From assembly GCA_026389455.1 (NCBI GenBank), contig JAPLHV010000180.1:1-57573 (forward strand): a stretch of DNA of 57,573 nucleotides, read 5' to 3'. Made by a program: the position numbers and the translations under genes. The notes under the pieces were generated by a model, which was given only the letters and a program-made list of their open reading frames with translations, did no database searches and had not been told where the DNA came from. Source of the stretch: Coprothermobacterota bacterium (GTDB taxonomy: Bacteria > Caldisericota > JANLFM01). Numbering within the stretch: position 1 is the first letter of the stretch; every line of letters begins with the position of its first letter. Of this stretch, positions 1,827 through 27,045 are shown piece by piece.

Positions 1827-2918
1827 GTGTATCAGAAGAAGTGGTTATTCGGCTCTATGCGAGCTGACCACCCGCTCGTTGTTTCAGCGAATGTTGAGGT
1901 GGCGTACCGACTGCGCGATATGTTCGTGCAGAATGCCCTCATCGACGGCGGTGACCCGAAGCGTGCTGCTGTGGTACTTAATCTGAACAACCCCGAGACA
2001 ATCTTCGTCTCGACTATCGCTGAGATGCAGGAAATGTTTAAGGCTGTCAGCCAACCCCGTGGAGAACTGGAAGTATTCGCCGCAGCCTTCCGCTATGTGC
2101 AGAAGGTCGTTGCTTCCCTCAACGAAATCGAGGAGAAGACAACGATTGAGACAAGAGAGTTTATTCCGGAGTTCCAGCACTTCTACGAAAAGGAAGAAGT
2201 GCGCAAGACCCAGACGATATTCCCCAACATGCGCCACTTGAACCGATTGCGCGTTTTCCCACGCGTCATCATCGCTGACAAAGCGGTGAAACGTTTTTCC
2301 TACCGCCAGGTCGCAGCGCCCCTCATTGCCGGCCTGTTGACTGGCAGATATGTGGGAGAAGCAGTTGGGTTCGCTTATCCGGGACCAAACCACGGTCCAC
2401 TGCAAATGACCCTGATCGACAAAAAGATCACCTCAGAGGCCAGCTACATCGCTGCTTTTACGTCTCAACCGTGGCGGGTTGTAAACAGCCGGGTCAAGAA
2501 AGGCGACGGTTTTGCGCCGTCACAACAAGACTTCCTTGATCTTCGAGAGTTCTTTCTCGACCGTCTGGCCGATGGCACGCCCGTCTGGCCAGGACGAATT
2601 GACACTGATCTAAGCGAACGCGAAATCACCCAGCACGCTAACGGCTATGCCACTAACGGCTGGGACGAAGACGGAGACGATGGGCTAGACCACAAGCGCC
2701 GATATACCCGCCTTACCGATCGCAACGAACTCGGGCGAGAGCCAGGAATTCGCTTGAGCAGTTCTGGAAACACGATCGGGCGCGAGAAGTCGGAGTTCAA
2801 TGATCCCGCCGTGCGGCTGGAGATGAACACAGAGAAACCACTTACCTTCAGCGCTCCGGAACGGCAGGTACAACGCCGTGAAGCTTATCACCGCTGGGTT
2901 AGCAAGCAACGTCGCTAG
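1827..2918 (+). CDS. Hypothetical protein (start uncertain; GTG 1827 follows GAGGT)
   Basis: Long open frame 1602-2918; RBS-like AAAGAGGT precedes GTG at 1827. Confidence 0.6.
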   Translation: MYQKKWLFGSMRADHPLVVSANVEVAYRLRDMFVQNALIDGGDPKRAAVVLNLNNPETIFVSTIAEMQEMFKAVSQPRGELEVFAAAFRYVQKVVASLNEIEEKTTIETREFIPEFQHFYEKEEVRKTQTIFPNMRHLNRLRVFPRVIIADKAVKRFSYRQVAAPLIAGLLTGRYVGEAVGFAYPGPNHGPLQMTLIDKKITSEASYIAAFTSQPWRVVNSRVKKGDGFAPSQQDFLDLREFFLDRLADGTPVWPGRIDTDLSEREITQHANGYATNGWDEDGDDGLDHKRRYTRLTDRNELGREPGIRLSSSGNTIGREKSEFNDPAVRLEMNTEKPLTFSAPERQVQRREAYHRWVSKQRR

Positions 2919-2986: not shown

Positions 2987-3331
2987 ATGAGAGTGATCAT
3001 TGCAGGCAGCCGCAGTTGCACTGACATACAACAAATAGAGGTTGCCGTTGCAGCCTCCGGCTTTAAGCCAAGCCTCATTATCAGCGGGTGCGCCAGGGGA
3101 GTTGACCGACTTGGCGAAACTTGGGCTTCCAACCATGGGATTCCCATAGAGAAATATCCAGCAAATTGGGACGCCTATGGCAAGTCAGCAGGGTACCGCA
3201 GAAACGCAGTTATGGCATCTAACGCCGATGTCCTCATTGCTGTCTGGGATGGGCACAGTCCCGGGACAAGACACATGATCGACACTGCCATTGGGATGGG
3301 ATTAAGTGTCTACATTCATCAGATCTCTTAG
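2987..3331 (+). CDS. SLOG superfamily protein (DUF2493/cpYpsA-like)
   Basis: MRVIIAGSR...IISGCARGVD...AGYRRNAVMA...WDGHSPGTRHMI; RBS AAGGAG. Confidence 0.85.
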   Translation: MRVIIAGSRSCTDIQQIEVAVAASGFKPSLIISGCARGVDRLGETWASNHGIPIEKYPANWDAYGKSAGYRRNAVMASNADVLIAVWDGHSPGTRHMIDTAIGMGLSVYIHQIS

Positions 3332-3776
3332 CTCAAACCAAGTGTTCGTTTTTGGATCAAACTCCACTGGATTTCATGGCGCTGGCGCTGCGGGATTTGC
3401 CTTCCGTGGCACTGCTGAAAACTCCTGGAGAAGTGATCCGTTCTTTCTGGCTGCCATGAAATCGCCGACCGGCAGCATGCTTCGCCTCGGCCGATGGGCT
3501 GTGTACGGAATAGCGCGTGGTTACCAGGTGGGTCGTGAGGGCAGATCGTATGCTGTCTGCACCATCGCTCGCCCGGGGCTGCTCAGGTCCGTCTCCTTGG
3601 ATGACATCAAGCAGCAGCTTACCGAGATGGCGAAGTTCGCCAAGCTCAACAGAGAGTTGCAGTTTCTATGCAGCAAAGTCGGATGTGGCCGCTCCGGCTA
3701 TGCGGAGAGCGAAATCATGGGCATTTGGCCAGAAATGCCAAGCAACGTGATCAATCCAAAGTGGTCAGAAAGGTAA
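3306..3776 (+). CDS. Macrodomain-like phage protein (A1S_2505-like)
   Basis: VFVFGSN..GFHGAGAA and KVGCGRSG motifs; start position uncertain. Confidence 0.7.
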   Translation: MSTFIRSLSSNQVFVFGSNSTGFHGAGAAGFAFRGTAENSWRSDPFFLAAMKSPTGSMLRLGRWAVYGIARGYQVGREGRSYAVCTIARPGLLRSVSLDDIKQQLTEMAKFAKLNRELQFLCSKVGCGRSGYAESEIMGIWPEMPSNVINPKWSER

Positions 3777-3783
3777 AACAAAG

Positions 3784-4113
3784 ATGTCATACTGTTTGAT
3801 TTGCAATACGGAAATGGATGACTATGGCGGCGGTTGCGATTGCAACCGTTTGTTCGTAGAGCACCTTATCTATCGAGATGGGGGCTTTCGCATGATAGCT
3901 GTCCTCATGCGCATGAGTGGGGTGAGCTTCCCCCTCATTTTCGATCTATTCCAAAGCCAAAGCATCAAAGTCCCACGCGACCTTGATATCCATAGAGCGA
4001 TTGGAATATTGTGGCGTAGACTTAAGAAGAACTTCCCGCCAGCTTACAAAAACAATCGTTTAATCCGCCCAAACACCAGCGTCATCTCCGATTGGCCAGA
4101 ATTCCCTGGTTAA
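3784..4113 (+). CDS. Hypothetical protein
   Basis: 109-aa ORF with N-terminal Cys cluster, tightly coupled to the upstream gene. Confidence 0.55.
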   Translation: MSYCLICNTEMDDYGGGCDCNRLFVEHLIYRDGGFRMIAVLMRMSGVSFPLIFDLFQSQSIKVPRDLDIHRAIGILWRRLKKNFPPAYKNNRLIRPNTSVISDWPEFPG

Positions 4114-4118
4114 ACCAA

Positions 4119-4165
4119 GCTGAAACGAAGGAGTAGGACAGCACTCCCACTACTTCAGATGCAGA
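4119..4165 (+). repeat. Highly degenerate hammerhead-related intergenic repeat (copy 1)
   Basis: GCTGAAA...GGAGT-AGGACAGC-ACTCC; same GACAG loop as the other copies with a compensated stem. Confidence 0.5.
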
Positions 4166-4389
4166 CAACTGTAATTTCCCCGGAGTTCAGAAAGGTAGAA
4201 GAGATGAATCGTATTTGTGTTTTTTGCGGAGATAAGTATGACCCGAATGACCTTCACCTGCAGGATGATCGCGAAACAGTGCTGTTCTGCGCACATTTTG
4301 GGAAGACTCTCACCGAAACGGAGCAGGCAATTGTTGAGGGTACGATCTGCACCCTTTGTGCCCTCAACGGGCAAATAGCCGGTAGGTAG
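4159..4389 (+). CDS. Small Cys-rich hypothetical protein
   Basis: CVFC and CTLC motifs; may start at ATG 4204. Confidence 0.5.
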   Translation: MQTTVISPEFRKVEEMNRICVFCGDKYDPNDLHLQDDRETVLFCAHFGKTLTETEQAIVEGTICTLCALNGQIAGR

Positions 4390-4393
4390 TAAA

Positions 4394-4446
4394 GCCGAAA
4401 TCTGGGGTGGTGACAGCGCCCCAGAATCTGAAACAAGAGATGAGGC
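4394..4446 (+). repeat. Degenerate hammerhead copy (copy 2)
   Basis: GCC-GAAA-stem III-ATC...GAGATGA-GGC; core CTGATGA mutated and stem I lost. Confidence 0.75.
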
Positions 4447-4453
4447 AAAAAAA

Positions 4454-4837
4454 GTGAACGAGAAGTTTGTCCCAACAAAAGAGCAGATTCAGGAATATCG
4501 GGAAGAAGAGTTATACGCAATGAGCGCTGAGCGCTCCTTGGAGAGCGCTACTGACAGGTACATGATGGGTTGTGATGAAGCCATCGAGGAAGTTGCCAGG
4601 TTGGCCTCCGCACTATACAAGGCCTGTGACAATCTATATGAGAAAGATGTAGACGCAGCCAGCGAGGGCATGGACAACAACGACTTCGCCCAGGTTTTTC
4701 TCGCGGTTACAACGCCAGAGAGAAGAATCGTAAAAAGGGCCATGGAACTGGTTCTCTCGCAAAGGAATTGCTTAGTGTTTGATGTGCGTCTGCCAGAGAG
4801 TTTCCTGTTCGGCAAATTCGACGATTTTCCTGGATAG
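4454..4837 (+). CDS. Hypothetical protein
   Basis: 127-aa ORF with GTG start after GAGG. Confidence 0.6.
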   Translation: MNEKFVPTKEQIQEYREEELYAMSAERSLESATDRYMMGCDEAIEEVARLASALYKACDNLYEKDVDAASEGMDNNDFAQVFLAVTTPERRIVKRAMELVLSQRNCLVFDVRLPESFLFGKFDDFPG

Positions 4838-4870
4838 CCGAAATCTGGGGTGGGACAGCGCCCCCACATC
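4837..4870 (+). repeat. Truncated hammerhead copy (copy 3)
   Basis: GCCGAAATCTGGGGTGGGACAGCGCCCC, i.e. GAAA and stem III only. Confidence 0.75.
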
Positions 4871-4895
4871 AACAATCCCGAGAAAGGAAAATCTA

Positions 4896-5174
4896 ATGAA
4901 TTTAGCATCAGATGGAATAGGTGAAGTTATAGGCGTTTATTCTACGCACGGTCATAAGTTCAACCGTGTGGAGTACAACATCAAGTATAGGGGTAATGAC
5001 ACGCTGTACACCCACATACGGTGGGAGTCAGCATGGATGGTAATGATCGGTGATGAGGTTTTGCTCCAAGCTGGGCAGATTATCAACGATACTTATCTCA
5101 ACGCGATACTCTACCGTTTGCAAAGAAGGCCTGAGTGGTGGATGAACCGCACAGAAACCATGGTTAAGATTTAA
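4896..5174 (+). CDS. Hypothetical protein
   Basis: ATG 4896 after AAAGGA; part of the 4779-5174 open frame. Confidence 0.55.
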   Translation: MNLASDGIGEVIGVYSTHGHKFNRVEYNIKYRGNDTLYTHIRWESAWMVMIGDEVLLQAGQIINDTYLNAILYRLQRRPEWWMNRTETMVKI

Positions 5175-5253
5175 GCCGAAATCTGGGGTGGTGACAGCGC
5201 CCCAGGATCTGCGCGTACAAAGGTTATCGCGCACTGATGAGGCAATACCTTGT
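5175..5253 (+). ncRNA. Type II hammerhead ribozyme
   Basis: Stem II GCC(5175-77)/GGC(5241-43); GAAA 5178-81; stem III 5181-5208; AUC cleavage triplet ending C5209; stem I TGCGCG/CGCGCA; CTGATGA 5234-40; loop I AAGGT complementary to 3' tail ACCTT (pseudoknot). Confidence 0.88.
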
Positions 5254-5807
5254 TAGGGAAGCTTCGAGCGGGCCTCCCCACCTCCTAAAGCCCGTACTAT
5301 GGTCGGCCCTCTCCCCACCCGCCCACCCTGATCTCTTCCTCACCGTGTGTATTGGTCGTAAGCCTTTGCCTCGTGGCGCTCCGCTCCGCTCCGCGCCCCT
5401 CGGCCAAAACTTCAGAAGAATAAACCGCACTCCCTCCCTTGCTTTCTGCTCAAACCTACTTCCCGCCCGATTAAGCCTCTGTTCGCCGCTCCCCATCACC
5501 AGGTCCAACCCTTGGTCGCAACAGCTCCCAGCCTCAGCTCGCTTCGCTCGCTTCGGCCTAACAACGACAGAAGAAACCTGCTTTACCCGCCCACCCATTT
5601 CACCGCCCATCCCCCACAGTCCACCCCTTTCCCACCCCTTCCTTACCCCACTTCCCACTCGTTTCAAACCAAACAAATTCAAGACCTCCCCAAAACCAAG
5701 CAAGGTCAAGAGCAGTGCGCCCCCGCTCTTTTGAGGGGGACGGAATGAGGTAGAAAAAAACCTCTCTTCCTTTCCCTTCCATGGTCCTCGCATCCATGGA
5801 TGGAGAA

Positions 5808-5862
5808 AGTCAAAGGCTAGTCAAAGGCTAGTCAAAGGCTAGTCAAAGGCTAGTCAAAAGCT
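5808..5862 (+). repeat. Five tandem 11-bp repeats (AGTCAAAGGCT), iteron-like
   Basis: Four exact copies plus one with a single mismatch, inside a ~750-bp non-coding region. Confidence 0.9.
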
Positions 5863-6024
5863 CTTCCCCCCGTTTTTTTGAGGGGGGAGGGGAGGGTAGA
5901 AAAAGGTTTCCCAAAGGTGCAGCGCGGTTCGCACCAAAACGGGCATGCCTAGTTCTACTTCACTTCAACCCCTCAAAAATCAACTTCCGTAGCGTTAGCC
6001 AGCGTTCCGGACAAAGGAGATGAA

Positions 6025-6666: not shown

Positions 6667-6891
6667 ATGCATCTGAGCCAAGAAGCTTCCCGGCTCGTAC
6701 AAGCCATTTACGGTCGGGAAGCTTGCCTGGTCGCGCTCCCTCTTTGGCAGCGTCAACTTGAACCCCTCAGCAGCCCGCGTGAAGCCCGCCGCCTTGCCGA
6801 GGAACTCGATGGCGTACCCGACAGCGTCCGCAACGCACTGTTTGGATACATAAACCAGGCTCTGCGCCTGGAAAGGAGAGAAAATTGGTAA
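6667..6891 (+). CDS. Hypothetical protein
   Basis: Abuts the upstream stop and overlaps the next start. Confidence 0.5.
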   Translation: MHLSQEASRLVQAIYGREACLVALPLWQRQLEPLSSPREARRLAEELDGVPDSVRNALFGYINQALRLERRENW

Positions 6892-11568: not shown

Positions 11569-11772
11569 ATGAAAATTGCCAAGTGGTACAACACGCGCTT
11601 CTGGGCTGTCTACGATTCCAAGTACAAGCTGATTTGCCTCTGCGTCTACAAGTGTGGGGCCCTTGCCTTGGTTAAAAGGCTTAGCAAGAAACCAGCCCTT
11701 GTCGTGAGCCAAAGTATGATCCATGAAAAGTCGCCAAAAATTCCCTTCGTGGCCTGGAAAGCGAAATGCTAA
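11569..11772 (+). CDS. Small hypothetical protein
   Basis: RBS GGGAG; overlaps the ATPase start. Confidence 0.6.
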   Translation: MKIAKWYNTRFWAVYDSKYKLICLCVYKCGALALVKRLSKKPALVVSQSMIHEKSPKIPFVAWKAKC

Positions 11773-12791
11773 TCAATGAGACCAAGCGTCTTCTGAAGCA
11801 CAAGATGCTCTCCAGCCATCCAACCTCCCTCATGATTTGGGGACCGCCGGGCGTGGGAAAGTCTCAGGCTGTTAAGGAAGTGGCTGAAGAACTAGGATGG
11901 AACCTGATTGACCTCCGTCTTCTGCTGTTGAACCCGGTTGATTTGCGCGGCATCCCGGTCCCAAACCGCGAGCTGGGAGTTGCTGAGTGGTTTCCCGCCT
12001 CATTTTTACCGAATACAGACCGGCACGGCGCGAAAGGAATCCTCTTCATCGACGAGATAAACGCCGCTCCAAGCTCGCTGCAGGCATCATCTTACCAGCT
12101 CGTTCTGGATCGGCGCTGTGGCGAATACGTACTGCCGGATGGCTGGCGCATCATCGCCGCCGGGAACAACGCCACAGACAAATCCATCGTCAGTAGGATG
12201 CCCTCGGCTTTGGCCAACCGGATGACCCACCTGGAGGTTGATTGCGATCTGACTGATTGGAAATCATGGGCGCTCACTCACGACGTAGACCCCATGGTGG
12301 TCTCCTTCCTGAACTATAGGCAGGAGCTGCTCTTCAAGATGCCGGACGGAATTGACCAGATCAAGGGATTCCCGTCCCCGCGCACCTGGGAGTTCGTCTC
12401 CAATGACATCAAGGATTACCACGGCGACATCGAGGCAGCCTATCCGTTTATCGTAGGCAACATCGGCAGCGGCCCTGCCACCGAATTCCTGGCTTATTCT
12501 CGCGTCTATGGCAAGCTTCCAGATATCGAGCGAATCCTTGATAGGGGAGAGGGCGAAACCGTAACTGGCATCGATTTGCTGTATGCTGTCTGCGGCGCTC
12601 TTGTAAGCTCCCTGGTGCGGAAGCAAGACAAGAAACGCTTTGCCAATTTCCTTGGATATATCTCCAGGATCCCCCGCGAATTTCAAGTGCTGGCCGTAAA
12701 AGATTGCTTCAGCGCCAAGCTTGAGACCCTGCTCGTGTCTATTCCGGCTTTCTCGAAATGGGCAGAAGCCAATTCCGATGTCATTCTGTAG
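11766..12791 (+). CDS. MoxR-related AAA+ ATPase (phage type, DUF2201 partner)
   Basis: Walker A GPPGVGKS, Walker B ILFIDE, AAGN, ALANR and FPSPRTW motifs. Confidence 0.9.
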   Translation: MLINETKRLLKHKMLSSHPTSLMIWGPPGVGKSQAVKEVAEELGWNLIDLRLLLLNPVDLRGIPVPNRELGVAEWFPASFLPNTDRHGAKGILFIDEINAAPSSLQASSYQLVLDRRCGEYVLPDGWRIIAAGNNATDKSIVSRMPSALANRMTHLEVDCDLTDWKSWALTHDVDPMVVSFLNYRQELLFKMPDGIDQIKGFPSPRTWEFVSNDIKDYHGDIEAAYPFIVGNIGSGPATEFLAYSRVYGKLPDIERILDRGEGETVTGIDLLYAVCGALVSSLVRKQDKKRFANFLGYISRIPREFQVLAVKDCFSAKLETLLVSIPAFSKWAEANSDVIL

Positions 12792-14123: not shown

Positions 14124-15350
14124 ATGAACAAAGATATAGAAACAGCAATCACGCGAGCCAGGATCCACCTGGTCATGAACAATCCTTTCTATGGCACGCT
14201 TGCCTTGTATCTGAACCTCCGAGAAGGCAGTGTGCCAACTATGGGCACCGATGGCAAGAACCTCTTCTATGATCCAACTTTCGTCGCCTCTATCTATCGA
14301 AACGGCCAGGGATTGAATGAATTAATCGGCGCTGTCGCCCATGAGATTCTCCACAATGCGCTTTTGCACCTCTGGCGGGGACAGGCGCGCCACCCAACAA
14401 TCTGGAATATGGCGGCCGACTTTGCTAATAACGCCATTCTCCTTGAGTCCGGCTTCAAGCTACCGCAGGGACATCTCTATGAGAAAGACTACGACGGGAT
14501 GACTGCGGAAGAGATCTATACCAAAATCATTCAGAACCTCCAATCCAACCAATTGTCCGCTCAAGGGAATAGCGAGGAAAGCAGCAACCAAAGCGATGGC
14601 GATCCGAGCGATAACGATCACCAAAACCAAGATGGTCAGACCAATAAGAGCCAAGACGCCCGCGAACAAACCTGGGGAGAGCACAGCCCCTGGAAAGATG
14701 CAGGGAAAAGAGAGACCGATAAATTAAGCAATGAGTGGCGAGATCGCGTGGTTCAAGCTGCAGAGTCAGCCAAGAAGCGCGGCAAATGCCCAGGAGCCAT
14801 CGAGAGATTAATCAGCAACCTGCTTTACCCCAAGCTTGACTGGCGCAAAGCGCTGGCCAGCTTCATTCGTCCAAGCAAGTGCGACTTTACTTGGAGCCCG
14901 CCAGACAGGCGCTACCTGAACGACCTCTATGATTACCTCGTATTGCCGGACTTCAATGATGAGAGCGTAGAAAATATCGTCATAGCCGTGGACACCTCAG
15001 GCTCCATCGCTCAAGAGGAACTTGATCAATTCATGTCTGAAGTCAACGCCATAATGAGCAGTTATAGCCAATTCCGGGGCCATCTCGTGTTTTGTGATGC
15101 AGACATTCAATCGTGGACAGAGATAGAAAGAGACACTGTCCTGCCGATCCCCAAAGGCGGCGGCGGAACTGACTTCCGTTCTGTCTTTCTCGAGGTTGAA
15201 AAACGAGGATTGGAACCCAGCGCGCTGGTGTTCATTTCGGACGGCTACGGCGATTATCCAGACAAACCGCCCAGCTATCCAGTGCTTTGGGTGCTGACCA
15301 CCAAGAATTGCGCAGTGCCTTGGGGAGCGAGCGTAGAGATCACCATCTGA
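14124..15350 (+). CDS. DUF2201-type metallopeptidase-like + vWA domain protein
   Basis: TMGTDG, HEILH, WNMAAD; vWA MIDAS VDTSGS, GGGTDF and SDG motifs. Confidence 0.9.
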   Translation: MNKDIETAITRARIHLVMNNPFYGTLALYLNLREGSVPTMGTDGKNLFYDPTFVASIYRNGQGLNELIGAVAHEILHNALLHLWRGQARHPTIWNMAADFANNAILLESGFKLPQGHLYEKDYDGMTAEEIYTKIIQNLQSNQLSAQGNSEESSNQSDGDPSDNDHQNQDGQTNKSQDAREQTWGEHSPWKDAGKRETDKLSNEWRDRVVQAAESAKKRGKCPGAIERLISNLLYPKLDWRKALASFIRPSKCDFTWSPPDRRYLNDLYDYLVLPDFNDESVENIVIAVDTSGSIAQEELDQFMSEVNAIMSSYSQFRGHLVFCDADIQSWTEIERDTVLPIPKGGGGTDFRSVFLEVEKRGLEPSALVFISDGYGDYPDKPPSYPVLWVLTTKNCAVPWGASVEITI

Positions 15351-17474: not shown

Positions 17475-17687
17475 GCAGCAAACTATCGAAAACGAAAAAA
17501 ACTTGATCATCTTGAAAGAGAAGGCAACAGTTTTTTAGAAACATTAGCAAAAGGGGGTCACGTAATCGGCATCTGATTTATTCTGGAGAGGTTATTTCTA
17601 TTTCTCTTTCTTCTGAAAAGATTGATTCTATCTGTCGGGTATCCGACAATAACTTCATGAAATATGTTTTCCAAGGGAGAGGAAAAG

Positions 17688-20600
17688 ATGCGTAGAATAA
17701 TTGTAGGAAAAGTAACCTGTCTCGTTCTGATTATCTTCATGATCTCCTCTGCTTTCGTCCCTGGTTTTGCGTCCGGACATGAAAACAACTCCGGGTTTGT
17801 TCCGGAATATTCCTCCATTCAATCCACAGTTCAAAATAACTCCCTGGCTGCCGGCGCTGGTCAGACCCTCGGCCTGAAGGGGGACGGCACGGTCTGGGTT
17901 TGGGGAGACAACGGCAATGGTCAACTGGGTTTGGGGGACACCACCGACCGATCCACCCCAGTGCAGGTCACTGCCCTGGGCAACGATATAACAATCTTAG
18001 AAGCAGGTTCATACCATTCCCTTGCCCTGAAGGGGGACGGCACGGTCTGGGCCTGGGGATATAACGGCAACGGCCAGTTAGGGTTAGGAGACAATACTAA
18101 TCGCTATACCCCGGTGCAAGTCACTGCCCTAGGAGACAACGTGGTGGCTCTGACAGCCAATGGAGGCCACACTTTAGCCCTGAAGGGGGACGGTACAGTC
18201 TGGGCTTGTGGATACAACGGCAATGGTCAACTAGGGTTGGGGGACACTGCTGACCGCTCCAGCCCAGTTCAAGTACTCGCCCTAGGCAACAACGTAAAAG
18301 CCTTGACTACTGGTGAGTACCATTCCTTAGCTCAAAAGGAGGACAGCACGGTTTGGGCTTGGGGAAAAAATGACCACGGTCAGCTGGGGCTGGGGGACAC
18401 CATCAGCCGCTTAACCCCGGTACAGGTCACTTCCCTGGGTAGCAACGTGGCGGCAATGGCTGCCGGTGGGATGCATACCCTATCTCTAAAGGATGATGGT
18501 ACAGTCTGGGCTTGGGGATGGAACAACAATGGTCAGCTGGGGCTGGGGGACACAACCGACCGTCTCAGTCCTGTTCAGGTCACCGCCCTGGGAAGCAACG
18601 AAGTAGCTGTAGCTGTCGGCTGGATGCATACCATAACTCTAAAGGATGATGGTACAGTCTGGGCTTGGGGATACAACGGCAATGGTCAGCTGGGGCTGGG
18701 GGATAACACTAACCGATCCAGCCCAGTTCAGGTGCTCGCTCTAGGTAACAACGTAACGTCCTTAACCACTGGCGAGTACCATTCCCTGGCCTCGAAGGAT
18801 GACGGTACGGTCTGGGCTTGGGGAATGAACAACCATGGTCAGCTGGGGTTGGCAGACACCACAGACCGCCTCAGCCCGGTGCAGGTGCCTACCTGGCAGA
18901 GTCCACTGAACCCTCCCTCTGGCCTCACCGCAACGGCCGTTTCCTCAGGCCAGATCAACCTCTTTTGGATGGATAACTCCGGCAACGAGGAGAGCTTCAA
19001 TCTCGAGCGCAAGACCGGCAGCGGGGGAAGCTGGTCGCAGATCGCCACTGTCGGTGTCAACGTCACCAGCTACTCCGACACTGGACTTGCTTCTAACACC
19101 CCCTATTATTACCGCGTCTGTGCCTTCAGGGCCGCCGGCAACTCAGTCTATTCCAATGAGGCTTTTGCCACCACTTCGAACAATACCCAATATAATCAAA
19201 CCTTATTCAGTGGCTGGAACATGGTTACAGTTGGATTGCAGACACCACTTGCTCCCGCCCAATTGTTCGGCTCTAGTTTCCAAGCAATCTACCGTTGGGA
19301 ACCGATTGGAGGAACATATTTTACGCCACAAGCGTTGGAACCTGGACTAGGCTACTGGGTGAAAATGGCAGCGGCTACGACGATAACTGTCCAAGGCACT
19401 CCCCTCGTTTCCCGAACCCTCCCGCTTTCTACTGGATGGAATCAGGTTGGCAGTCCCTTCGGCTCCATTACCCCCTGGTCCACGGTGAAAGTGGCAAAAG
19501 AAGGAACTGAGTACTCAATAATGGAGGCTAAGCTGGCCGGCTGGATCATTCCTGCCTACTCTTGGAACGGAACCTCCTATGATGTAATAGACTACGAATC
19601 CTCAGCGATGGGCGTGGGTCAAGGATTCTGGATCAAGGCCAATACCGCGGGGATGTCCTTTTTGTTTGGTAACCTTATTCCTTCAAAGGCTTCGATCGCA
19701 GCTGGAGCATTCCATACCCTTGCCCTGAAGGGGGACGGCACAGTGTGGGCATGGGGATCAAACAGTGATGGCCAACTTGGGCTGGGAGACGGAGCCACCC
19801 GCTACTATCCAGTGCAAATCACTAGCCTGGCTGATAATGTATCATCCCTGGCTGCTGGTGGGTACCATACTGTTGCCTTGATGAAAGATACCACGGTCTG
19901 GGCTTGGGGAAGCAATTTTTCTGGCCAGCTGGGAGTGGGGGACTCCACTTCCAGCAATAGCCCGGTACAGGTCACTTCCCTAGGTAGCAATGTAGTAGCT
20001 CTTGTCGCGGGATGGGGGTATACCCTAGCCCTAAAAAGTGACGGCACAGTCTGGGCTTGGGGAGAGAACAGCAATGGTCAACTGGGTTTGGGGGACACCA
20101 CTCATCGCTCCATCCCGGTACAGGTCACTTCCCTAGGAAGCAACGTGACAGCCTTGACCGCCGGTGGGTGGCATACCCTTGTGATGAAGGAGGATGGTAC
20201 AGTCTGGGCTTGGGGAAACAATGGCTCTGGCCAGCTAGGACTGGGAGACACCACCGACCGTCTCAGTCCTGTTCAGGTCACCGCCCTGGGAAGCAACGTG
20301 ACAGCTCTCGCCGCTGGCGGGGACCATACTTTGGCTCTGAAAAGCGACGGCACGGTCTGGGCTTGGGGATGGAATAGCAATGGTCAGCTGGGTTTAGGGG
20401 ACAAAACTAATCGCTCCATCCCGGTACAGGTCACTTCCCTGGGAAGCAACGTGACAGCCTTGACCGCTGGTGGGTGGCATACCCTTGCGATGAAGGAGGA
20501 TGGAACAGTCTGGACTTGGGGATGGAACAATCTTGGTCAGCTGGGGTTGGGGGACACCACCGACCGATCCACCCCAACAAAAATAACTTCCCTAAATGGC

Positions 20601-20759
20601 AATATGACAGGCTTGACCGCTGGTGGGTGGCAGACTTTTTCCGTGAAGGGGGATGGCACGGTCTGGGCTTGGGGCTGCAACGGCAACGGCCGACTGGGGC
20701 TGGGAGACACCACCAACCGTATCAGCCCTGTGCAGGTACCTATCAATCTCAACCCGTAG
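17688..20759 (+). CDS. Secreted RCC1/BLIP-II repeat protein with FN3 domain
   Basis: Signal peptide, ~7 RCC1 repeats (LKGDGTVWAWGxNxxGQLGLGD), FN3 (PSGLTATAVSS...YYYRVCA), then ~7 more RCC1 repeats. Confidence 0.92.
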   Translation: MRRIIVGKVTCLVLIIFMISSAFVPGFASGHENNSGFVPEYSSIQSTVQNNSLAAGAGQTLGLKGDGTVWVWGDNGNGQLGLGDTTDRSTPVQVTALGNDITILEAGSYHSLALKGDGTVWAWGYNGNGQLGLGDNTNRYTPVQVTALGDNVVALTANGGHTLALKGDGTVWACGYNGNGQLGLGDTADRSSPVQVLALGNNVKALTTGEYHSLAQKEDSTVWAWGKNDHGQLGLGDTISRLTPVQVTSLGSNVAAMAAGGMHTLSLKDDGTVWAWGWNNNGQLGLGDTTDRLSPVQVTALGSNEVAVAVGWMHTITLKDDGTVWAWGYNGNGQLGLGDNTNRSSPVQVLALGNNVTSLTTGEYHSLASKDDGTVWAWGMNNHGQLGLADTTDRLSPVQVPTWQSPLNPPSGLTATAVSSGQINLFWMDNSGNEESFNLERKTGSGGSWSQIATVGVNVTSYSDTGLASNTPYYYRVCAFRAAGNSVYSNEAFATTSNNTQYNQTLFSGWNMVTVGLQTPLAPAQLFGSSFQAIYRWEPIGGTYFTPQALEPGLGYWVKMAAATTITVQGTPLVSRTLPLSTGWNQVGSPFGSITPWSTVKVAKEGTEYSIMEAKLAGWIIPAYSWNGTSYDVIDYESSAMGVGQGFWIKANTAGMSFLFGNLIPSKASIAAGAFHTLALKGDGTVWAWGSNSDGQLGLGDGATRYYPVQITSLADNVSSLAAGGYHTVALMKDTTVWAWGSNFSGQLGVGDSTSSNSPVQVTSLGSNVVALVAGWGYTLALKSDGTVWAWGENSNGQLGLGDTTHRSIPVQVTSLGSNVTALTAGGWHTLVMKEDGTVWAWGNNGSGQLGLGDTTDRLSPVQVTALGSNVTALAAGGDHTLALKSDGTVWAWGWNSNGQLGLGDKTNRSIPVQVTSLGSNVTALTAGGWHTLAMKEDGTVWTWGWNNLGQLGLGDTTDRSTPTKITSLNGNMTGLTAGGWQTFSVKGDGTVWAWGCNGNGRLGLGDTTNRISPVQVPINLNP

Positions 20760-21906: not shown

Positions 21907-22845
21907 TTAGTGCAAGAACTTGGTTGGCGTGAATTTCGCATGTGTCTTTTTCAAGTCTTTTAAATTCAGATGCACATATTTCACCGCAGCCGCTTGGGTT
22001 TTATCACCTAACAATTCTTGGATTTCTAGTACCGTCGCTCCCGCCCTCGCTGCTGCTGTCGCGAAGGAATGACGAAAGAGATGCAAATACAGGCGGATGC
22101 CTGTTGCCTTTTCCAACCGACGGATTATACCGCGTAACCCTCCATAATAAAGCCGGCTCCCGTCGCTATTTTGAAATAACCATGGTGATGAGGGAGAAGG
22201 CCGATGGCGAAGATACAACTCAATAGATTTTTTTGTTGGTTTATCCAGGCAAACTGGTCGCAGTCCCGTTTTTCCATTCACCACGAAGGTGTTATCTACA
22301 AGATTAATATTCCCAATCTGCATAGAGATCAACTCACCAGCGCGGATGCCGGTTGAAATAAGAATCCATACAATGGCAGTGTCACGTTGCCATTGCCGGG
22401 TTTTCCGAGCTGCGTCTATTACTTTTTGGTTTTGCTCGTCCTCAAGGATAGGGAAATTTCTTTCTTGAGTTTTCAGAAACGAAATCCCATCAAAGAAATT
22501 CTTGCCGTATTTCCTTGACGCAACAAATTTGTAAAGTGCCCGAAGTGCGCGCAGATAAGTATTGATTGATTCTGCACTCATTCTCGCATTGCCTCTATAT
22601 CCTGGGCATTTTCGCAGGTGGTCAATAAAGTCTTCGATATCCTCTCGCGACTTTGGCTCTCTACCTCCTAGAAATGACCCAAATCGACGAAAAGCATCCT
22701 CATAATCTTTGATTGTGCGCATACTTCTGTCTAATCGCTCGCGGCTGTCCAAGAAGCGTTTCATCGTTTCTTTAAATAGGAATTTGGTAGTGTTGCTCTT
22801 GCGAGCAGTTTGGTTAGTCCTTTCGGATTCTGTAGTTATCAACAT
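21907..22845 (-). CDS. Tyrosine recombinase/integrase
   Basis: TGIRAGE (R), GKTG (K), HLFRHSFAT (HxxR), LLGD, KYVH (Y). ATG 22845 chosen from the promoter position. Confidence 0.92.
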   Translation of the reverse strand: MLITTESERTNQTARKSNTTKFLFKETMKRFLDSRERLDRSMRTIKDYEDAFRRFGSFLGGREPKSREDIEDFIDHLRKCPGYRGNARMSAESINTYLRALRALYKFVASRKYGKNFFDGISFLKTQERNFPILEDEQNQKVIDAARKTRQWQRDTAIVWILISTGIRAGELISMQIGNINLVDNTFVVNGKTGLRPVCLDKPTKKSIELYLRHRPSPSSPWLFQNSDGSRLYYGGLRGIIRRLEKATGIRLYLHLFRHSFATAAARAGATVLEIQELLGDKTQAAAVKYVHLNLKDLKKTHAKFTPTKFLH

Positions 22846-22851
22846 GTTCAA

Positions 22852-22881
22852 ATAGTAACAAAAACTACATAACAATGTCAA
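22852..22881 (-). promoter_or_regulatory. sigma70-type promoter of the integrase
   Basis: TTGACA-18 bp-TACTAT on the minus strand. Confidence 0.6.
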
Positions 22882-22897
22882 GAACACCAAATAGAAC

Positions 22898-22949
22898 CAT
22901 CTGACTCTTAATCAGAGGGTTACAGGTTCGAGTCCTGTGCGATCCACCA
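22898..22949 (+). other. att site: 3' half of tRNA-Lys(CTT)
   Basis: CTGACTCTTAATCAG anticodon arm, ACAGGTTCGAGTCCTGT T arm, ends CCA. The 5' acceptor strand and D arm are absent. Confidence 0.88.
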
Positions 22950-26960: not shown

Positions 26961-27045
26961 GCGAAGGTGGCGGAATTGGCAGACGCGCTGGACTTAGGAT
27001 CCAGTGGTTCATACCATACGGGTTCGACTCCCGTCCTTCGCACCA
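26961..27045 (+). tRNA. tRNA-Leu(TAG)
   Basis: GCGAAGG...CCTTCGC-ACCA acceptor stem, anticodon TAG, long variable arm, GGTTCGACTCC. Confidence 0.96.

Follow-up and report, generated by a model that had tools for sequence, protein, structure and literature searches.

The locus and its surroundings

The window analysed here is a stretch of 57,573 nucleotides, the contig JAPLHV010000180.1 of a Coprothermobacterota bacterium. All open reading frames (ORFs) that we took as genes between positions 697 and 12791 lie on the + strand. From 697 onward, the families recognised in the element comprise DUF488, two SLOG-type proteins (YAcAr and YpsA), a MoxR-like AAA ATPase with its DUF2201 partner, GP88, and an RCC1-repeat protein; no virion genes were seen among them. 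Two features lie towards the far end of this region:

21907-22890, - strand, tyrosine integrase gene of the element
22892-22938, partial tRNA-like match beside the integrase gene (27.2 bits, model positions 8-63); a full tRNA lies about 4 kb further on, at 26961-27042

The tRNA-like match is possibly an attachment-site remnant that marks the right end of the element, the left end being cut off by the end of the contig. The G+C content is 0.37-0.57 up to 22.8 kb, versus 0.55-0.60 beyond 23.4 kb. Given the integrase, the tRNA-like match, and the lower G+C content from position 1 to about 22.8 kb, 'integrated element', the label used in a preliminary description of this DNA, seems a fair one. The RCC1-repeat protein, which also carries an fn3 domain, is 1031 aa long and is encoded inside the element at 17664-20759; upstream of it lie the genes for the MoxR-like AAA ATPase (11766-12791) and the DUF2201 metallopeptidase/VWA protein (14124-15350).

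The ribozyme candidate considered in this study lies between the end of a run of small genes and a long non-coding stretch, for which the following features serve as landmarks:

4896-5174, + strand, last ORF before the ribozyme (92 codons; ATG at 4896 behind AGGA, TAA stop at 5172-5174)
5808-5862, + strand, five tandem 11-nt units (AGUCAAAGGCU), iteron-like, within the C-rich non-coding stretch

A family search with the 92-aa product of the last ORF gave no match. The 770-nt non-coding stretch that follows the ribozyme (5254-6024) is C-rich and G-poor, with a GC skew of -0.30 at 5401-6000, and contains, apart from the iteron-like units, two G/C hairpins whose loops are T-rich, near 5718-5742 and 5864-5890. 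The preliminary description spoke of an origin-like region here, which is plausible from these features. In composition, the stretch is also rut-like. No terminator-like site was found between the last ORF and position 5747.

Contigs assembled from RNA libraries (four metatranscriptome runs of one study) correspond to 3367-3661, 3793-3943, 4498-4648, 4688-4838, and 4818-5014. Further contigs start at 5829, 5887, 5889, or 5899 and run to 7384, through the YpsA-like gene, with a greater word depth than the upstream pieces. None covers 5015-5817; as such contigs show neither RNA ends nor strand, this gap is neutral with regard to cleavage. The contig starts at 5829-5899 offer a lead, and only that, to a separate promoter that may lie just after the iterons.

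Anatomy of the hammerhead motif

Direct reading of the window at 5175-5251 (+ strand) gave every hammerhead core nucleotide, in the order of a type II hammerhead. Following the TAA stop codon, one reads GCC GAAA, a 28-nt hairpin, UC, a 24-nt hairpin, CUGAUGA, GGC, and finally AAU ACCUU. The individual parts are:

5175-5177, + strand, 5' strand of stem II, GCC (C11.1 = C5177), partner of GGC at 5241-5243
5178-5181, + strand, core G12 A13 A14 (5178-5180) and A15.1, together GAAA
5181-5208, + strand, stem III hairpin, 10 pairs (A15.1-U16.1, i.e. A5181-U5208, and 9 more) with one bulged G (5205 or 5206)
5209/5210, + strand, predicted cleavage site, after C17 (C5209) and before U5210, placed by motif position only
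5210-5233, + strand, stem I hairpin, UGCGCG (5210-5215) with CGCGCA (5228-5233), 6 perfect Watson-Crick pairs; loop I of 12 nt (5216-5227)
5234-5240, + strand, core C3 U4 G5 A6 U7 G8 A9, CUGAUGA
5241-5243, + strand, 3' strand of stem II, GGC (G10.1 = G5241), giving a stem II of 3 bp
5247-5251, + strand, 3' tail ACCUU, preceded by AAU; predicted 5-bp pseudoknot with AAGGU (5220-5224) in loop I

The cleavage triplet is AUC, and the two conserved pairs G10.1-C11.1 (G5241-C5177) and A15.1-U16.1 (A5181-U5208) are both formed. Stems I and III are capped by hairpin loops and stem II is open, which is the type II layout of three helices around the core. The preliminary description had listed the core nucleotides in type II order (GCC, GAAA, CUGAUGA, and GGC), a perfect 6-bp stem I, the complementarity between AAGGU in loop I and ACCUU in the tail, a start directly after the stop codon of the last gene, and C5209 as the predicted cleavage position, and all of these can be read from the letters as it had claimed.

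A conserved copy in a distant host

A scan of species-representative genomes with the 5' half of the ribozyme led to L017, a 4-kb contig of a metagenome-assembled genome (MAG) labelled uncultured Dehalococcoidales, on which the whole ribozyme is present. The L017 genome lies outside the 93 genomes counted in the phylum of the window, and its 23S fragment is 76% identical to that of the window. Positions 2077-2242 (- strand) of L017 are 92.8% identical in nucleotide sequence to 5167-5333 of the window, which comprises the ribozyme and ∼90 nt downstream of it; the shared flanking proteins are 31-69% identical. The similarity begins exactly at the stop codon before the ribozyme, and the gene directly upstream of the ribozyme in L017 (149 aa) is unrelated to the small genes of the window.

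Four positions differ between the two ribozymes. Two of these turn the fourth pair of stem I from G-C into A-U and are compensatory, while the remaining two affect the tail (A5247 to G, G5252 to U) and make the pseudoknot one of 6 pairs with one G-U. The evidence for compensatory change from this single orthologue amounts to the one double change in stem I, with stems II and III unchanged; in stem III, the loop sequence is identical as well.

The conservation extends beyond the ribozyme into the following block:

5254-5333, + strand, conserved non-coding block downstream of the ribozyme, part of the 92.8%-identical stretch 5167-5333

The alignment with L017 contains indels here that break any reading frame, and we therefore consider the block to be non-coding. 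Two ORFs over the C-rich stretch, 5237-5734 (+ strand) and 5224-5793 (- strand), were rejected because they had no family match and their frames are broken by these indels. In the 80 nt after the ribozyme we found neither an Rfam match nor a significant predicted fold (z-scores of -1.1 and -0.1). At the place matching 5808-5862, L017 has repeats of a CAAAGT type. The YAcAr-type SLOG gene and the phrog_2072-like gene (2987-3776 in the window) stand in the opposite order in L017, where the YAcAr-like match sits within a longer ORF (254 aa).

DNA searches for the ribozyme were negative throughout: the class (8 other genomes), the phylum (92 other genomes), and the phage and plasmid collections gave no match. 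A DNA search of 60 relatives with 4100-5300 gave no true match; the four short ones that it returned (32-48 nt) are chance-like, and none is at the ribozyme. Among viral contigs searched by protein, the 92-aa and 127-aa proteins had no relatives and the 156-aa protein led to a single distant locus, L037, at 32% identity. Scanned for exact matches, the viral contigs contained neither the 5' half nor the downstream block.

Uniqueness in the genome and fit to natural relatives

We scanned the 2.63-Mb genome on both strands with a descriptor consisting of CUGAUGA, a stem II of 2-3 bp beside GAAA, the A15.1-U16.1 pair, UH, and stems I and III of at least 4-5 bp. The ribozyme site was the only match. 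In 16 first-order Markov random genomes of equal size there was one relaxed match in total (stem III of 6 bp, stem I of 4 bp), or ∼0.06 per genome, and none in which both stems had at least 6 bp.

At gathering thresholds, an Rfam search of the window returned rRNA and one tRNA only. The type II hammerhead family RF02276 aligned to 5174-5251 over its full length (model positions 1-66) with 21.3 bits, 16 bits short of the gathering score of 37, which is a curation rule and no biological feature. The covariance-model match that the preliminary description had named as a check was thus obtained as regards the full-length alignment, but not as regards the score, which fails the threshold. The E-values were 0.033 for a search of 231 nt, 4 for 28 kb, and 0.09 for the whole genome. 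Within the genome, the ribozyme was the best RF02276 match; the next ones, at most 19 bits with E-values of at least 0.35, included none that was convincing. Searched at E ≤10, 11 of the 14 control genomes also gave RF02276 matches, never above the cut-off, and at E ≤5 no ribozyme family besides hammerhead was found in 1-28000. By itself, the Rfam evidence leaves the identity as a hammerhead undecided.

To collect relatives, we used a pattern in which 24 core and junction bases alone are fixed (GCCGAAA, ATCTG, and CACTGATGAGGC) and both hairpins are left free. It matched 16 times in 15 metagenome loci and twice in 2 viral loci, which together with L017 makes 19 matches with 16 distinct sequences. 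All 19 form stems I and III, and all have 4-7 bases of complementarity between loop I and the tail; L022 was mis-split by the regular expression and, read by eye, has a GUC site and an 8-bp stem I. For the 17 distinct sequences including the window, RNAalifold predicted a three-way junction with compensatory changes in 7 of 13 pairs. When loops were paired with the tails of other sequences as a control for the pseudoknot, at least 5 bp were reached in 39% of cases, versus 71% of the observed pairs, a weak control that is inflated by relatedness and by the G-U pairs allowed. One further locus, L016 (record name Sulfotelmatobacter), has the 5' half pattern and no 3' half and was taken as a chance match.

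With RF02276, 9 of the 19 pattern matches passed the threshold, 5 were listed below it, and 5, L017 among them, were unlisted at E ≤10. Since 10 of the 19 well-formed relatives fall under the threshold too, the sub-threshold score of the window is weak counter-evidence against its membership in this sub-class. The loci of the relatives contain 24 RF02276 matches above threshold and are therefore real hammerhead arrays, arranged gene by gene.

We also built a covariance model of our own from a training set of 13 relatives, with the window and L017 left out. This model scored the window at 48.6 bits (E = 3.9e-12 for the window and 1.8e-10 for the genome), within the range of 43.9-49.5 bits of the held-out members (L017 49.5, L022 48.5, and L025 43.9 bits). 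The score is partly circular, because the relatives used for training had themselves been retrieved with 24 bases of the candidate. For array hammerheads that the pattern had left unselected, the same model gave 29-57 bits, and the window falls inside this range.

Two features distinguish the window from the other members. Of the 15 other distinct hammerheads, 14 have a Shine-Dalgarno-like word and an ATG in the 40 nt downstream, whereas both are absent after the ribozymes of the window and L017. In the window, 3 nt separate stem II from the pseudoknot, versus 0-2 nt in 12 of the 15 other distinct sequences. Comparison of 25 window proteins with the loci L016-L034 and L037 gave no match except in L017.

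Partial copies in the same operon

A self-search of the window showed that the 5' half of the ribozyme (39 nt: AGCC GAAA and the hairpin of stem III as far as AUC) occurs twice more with 97% identity, at 4392-4430 and 4836-4864. Together with a more diverged candidate, these copies can be described as follows:

4393-4446, + strand, hammerhead relic 1, behind the stop codon of ORF 4159-4389; 5' half 97% identical to the intact copy; 22.5 bits with our own model, in an alignment that lacks stem I
4837-4870, + strand, hammerhead relic 2, overlapping the TAG stop codon of ORF 4454-4837; 5' half only, no 3' half; 4.5 bits
4117-4150, + strand, possible third relic, more diverged and tentative, behind ORF 3784-4113; AAGCUGAAA plus a hairpin

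In relic 1, AUCUG and GAUGAGGCAA are kept and flank an 8-nt segment that stands in place of the 24-nt stem I hairpin. The core strand has changed from CUGAUGA to GAGAUGA (C3 U4 to G A), with GGC kept, and the resulting GAGG lies 9 nt before the GTG start codon at 4454, that is, in the ribosome-binding region of the next gene. The possible third relic shares the loop motif GACAGC and has GGAG/CUCC where the others have the stem GGGG/CCCC; it was seen in a MAFFT alignment only, was missed by BLAST, and scored 3.5 bits with our own model.

For the copies at 4393-4446 and 4837-4870, the best interpretation is that they were once hammerheads of a gene-by-gene array and have since lost stem I and core nucleotides. 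Most simply, every gene of the operon would once have been followed by its own hammerhead, and of this old array the last alone survives. The stem III hairpin, including its loop, is near-invariant across the relics and L017; hammerhead function does not require a fixed loop III sequence. Two other interpretations of the half copies were rejected: they could not be cut in trans by the single 3' half, as the bases after AUC (UGAAAC and AACAAU) cannot pair with CGCGCA, nor are they hammerheads permuted in some other way, as CUGAUGA is absent within reach. The proteins of ORFs 3784-4113 and 4454-4837 end alike (EFPG and DFPG) just before the relic sequences, and the repeated unit may extend into the 3' ends of the genes.

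A competing hairpin

Thermodynamic folding of 5165-5265 predicted a hairpin in place of stem II:

5234-5256, + strand, competing hairpin CUGAUGAGG/CCUUGUUAG (5234-5242 with 5248-5256), -8.9 kcal/mol; sequesters the core and uses the pseudoknot tail

The minimum-energy fold has -34.4 kcal/mol versus -26.1 kcal/mol for the hammerhead secondary structure, and the probability of stem II is 0.003, in a calculation in which the program cannot score the pseudoknot. For a transcript that ends at GGC, stem II is present in the minimum-energy fold. The pseudoknot tail has, in other words, two mutually exclusive predicted partners, loop I and the core strand. The hairpin is kept in L017 (-8.8 kcal/mol), where the substitutions in the tail fit the pseudoknot and the competing hairpin equally well. 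In the 16 other sequences of the sub-class (15 distinct hammerheads), the corresponding values are -0.9 to -5.4 kcal/mol, with no comparable sequestration of the core. Neither this hairpin nor the decayed copies appear in the preliminary description. As a model, the hairpin could limit cleavage to a co-transcriptional period, or it could lock and cap the 3' product after the cut.

Proposed action and alternative readings

Taken together, we consider it very probable that a genuine hammerhead of type II occupies 5175-5251 (+ strand), one in which stem II is very short and loop I forms a pseudoknot with the tail; it would be transcribed as the tail of the operon and would cut itself at C5209/U5210. 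The preliminary description had proposed an intact type II hammerhead in which a short stem II is combined with a pseudoknot, and this is supported by the anatomy, the uniqueness in the genome, the junction predicted by RNAalifold, the L017 copy, and the architecture described in the passages of PMC3088659 cited below. The motif, its uniqueness, its fit to natural relatives, and its conservation are observed here, and transcription through the ribozyme, cleavage, and the consequences that follow are inferred.

The transcript of the + strand operon, in which ORF 4896-5174 comes last, would run past the stop codon at 5174 and carry the ribozyme as its tail. The ribozyme would fold while emerging, with stem II (GCC/GGC) and the pseudoknot (5220-5224 with 5247-5251) forming and aligning stems I and II, and the chain would be cut between C5209 and U5210. 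The upstream message would then finish with the stable hairpin of stem III and carry a 2',3'-cyclic phosphate. In this way the cut could serve as the 3' end of the message in the absence of a terminator, and would separate the message from the 770-nt iteron-bearing non-coding region. The 3' product would begin with the stem I hairpin, and its core strand could refold into the second hairpin at 5234-5256. A possible alternative consequence is that the cut yields the defined 5' end of an RNA that acts at the origin; that the 80 nt behind the ribozyme are strongly conserved slightly favours this option.

A bolder variant of this last idea seems improbable to us. It would treat the hammerhead as the first part of a non-coding module of ∼160 nt (5172-5333, 93% identical in two distant hosts), the tail of which toggles between the pseudoknot and the core-sequestering hairpin. 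A 5'-OH RNA with two hairpin caps would be released, enter the iteron region, and act in replication control or priming, and the 39-nt 5' halves would mark the joins of cassettes.

The sequence might also descend from a hammerhead and no longer be a ribozyme in the cell, being locked by the 5234-5256 hairpin or untranscribed, and conserved for some other reason within the 160-nt module. Such a view would be consistent with the conserved competing hairpin, which is ∼8 kcal/mol more stable than the hammerhead without its pseudoknot, with the plain decay of two or three sister copies in the operon, and with the conservation of a stem III loop that hammerhead function does not need. However, the catalytic nucleotides and the three stems are intact in both orthologues and the change in stem I is compensatory, the transcript up to GGC folds with stem II so that the active form could be reached first during transcription, and the energies leave out the pseudoknot, which the folding program does not score. 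We therefore regard the loss of ribozyme activity as unlikely.

The 97%-identical copies behind two more stop codons, which lack a working 3' half, raise the question of whether selection acts on the 39-nt 5' half (AGCC GAAA with the hairpin of stem III), with self-cleavage being secondary. At the 3' end of every small gene, this half could then serve as a junction of cassettes, as a site of recombination, or as a hairpin to which a protein binds. In L017, too, the 5' half is identical despite an unrelated upstream gene, and the conservation begins exactly at the first bases of the ribozyme. This is very unlikely in our judgement: the 3' half is equally conserved between the window and L017 and varies in such a way that pairing stays, the AUCUG and GAUGAGGCAA around the deletion in relic 1 point to the decay of complete ribozymes, and beyond chance no such motif occurs elsewhere in the window.

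That an intergenic hairpin happens to be flanked by hammerhead-like words, for which the sub-threshold Rfam score (E = 4 on 28 kb) and a CUGAUGA count in the window without excess over chance (11 found versus 8.1 expected) could be cited, is close to refuted by the single descriptor match in the real genome versus ∼0.06 per random genome in relaxed form, by the conservation of the full motif in L017, and by the fact that, given the 5' half, a 6-bp hairpin abutting AUC together with CUGAUGAGGC is far beyond chance.

Relation to known hammerheads

The self-cleaving type II hammerhead that we favour has the architecture of described examples. According to the passages on architecture in Perreault et al. 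(2011, PMC3088659), a pseudoknot of at least 4 bp just downstream of stem II is found in most type II hammerheads, and stem II often has 2 bp and can be as short as 1-2 bp; the passages on context place such hammerheads near integrases and flanking genes in prophages. Compared with RF02276 and the pseudoknotted type II hammerheads in those passages, the present one shares the circular permutation, the core, a very short stem II (3 bp here), an integrase-bearing element, and a pseudoknot of at least 4 bp that starts a few bases past stem II. It differs from RF02276 in its long bulged stem III with an 11-nt (or 7-nt) loop and in its 12-nt loop I, and the long bulged stem III and the 12-nt loop I probably explain the Rfam score of 21.3 bits. 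It further differs from the RF02276 sub-class in the 3-nt spacer and in a tail that is able to form the core-sequestering hairpin.

In Desulfovibrio vulgaris, cyPhyRNA-seq has been reported to show in vivo cleavage of three type II hammerheads (PMC8782182), evidence that bacterial genomes contain active members of this class. The likeness to the present ribozyme lies in the class, whereas cleavage was mapped there and is predicted from sequence here. The role of bacterial hammerheads is called unresolved in the relevant passage of a 2019 review (PMC6765202), and the processing of polycistronic messages is a role suggested in the passages cited from PMC3088659, PMC6765202, and PMC8782182.

With the prophage clusters in which hammerheads flank single genes, namely the triple of Agrobacterium tumefaciens in the same passages of PMC3088659 and the arrays of loci L019-L034, the locus shares the position directly behind the stop codons of consecutive small genes on the same strand. 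It differs from them in two respects. The last copy alone is intact and the copies of the preceding genes are relics, and it is followed by 770 nt of iteron-bearing non-coding DNA instead of a ribosome-binding site for a next gene.

We conclude that this is an ordinary case, as judged by its sequence: a hammerhead that appears genuine, with a known architecture and in a known kind of setting. It is one more bacterial hammerhead among thousands known, and the picture of the class is unchanged. Three aspects nevertheless give the locus some wider use. At its gathering score, RF02276 misses the ribozyme of the window and about half of the well-formed relatives examined, and annotation pipelines therefore under-count the sub-class. 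The intact ribozyme beside graded relics in one operon would provide a small natural record of how a hammerhead array decays, and the relics also record how the GAGG of a relic reaches the ribosome-binding region of the next gene. Finally, the junction of the ribozyme with a strongly conserved non-coding block at the edge of the iterons, combined with the conserved alternative hairpin, makes the locus a test case for the purpose of bacterial hammerheads.

Some of the arrays found with the relatives are dense. L027 (7995 nt) has 10 matches to our own model in 8 kb, and L019 and L022 have 4 each, several of which are sub-threshold or unlisted in Rfam. Twister ribozymes and type II hammerheads are known to co-occur, and L024 fits this pattern, with a type-P1 twister match at 6766-6826 (+ strand; 55.7 bits, gathering score 67.2) on a contig that it shares with several type II hammerheads.
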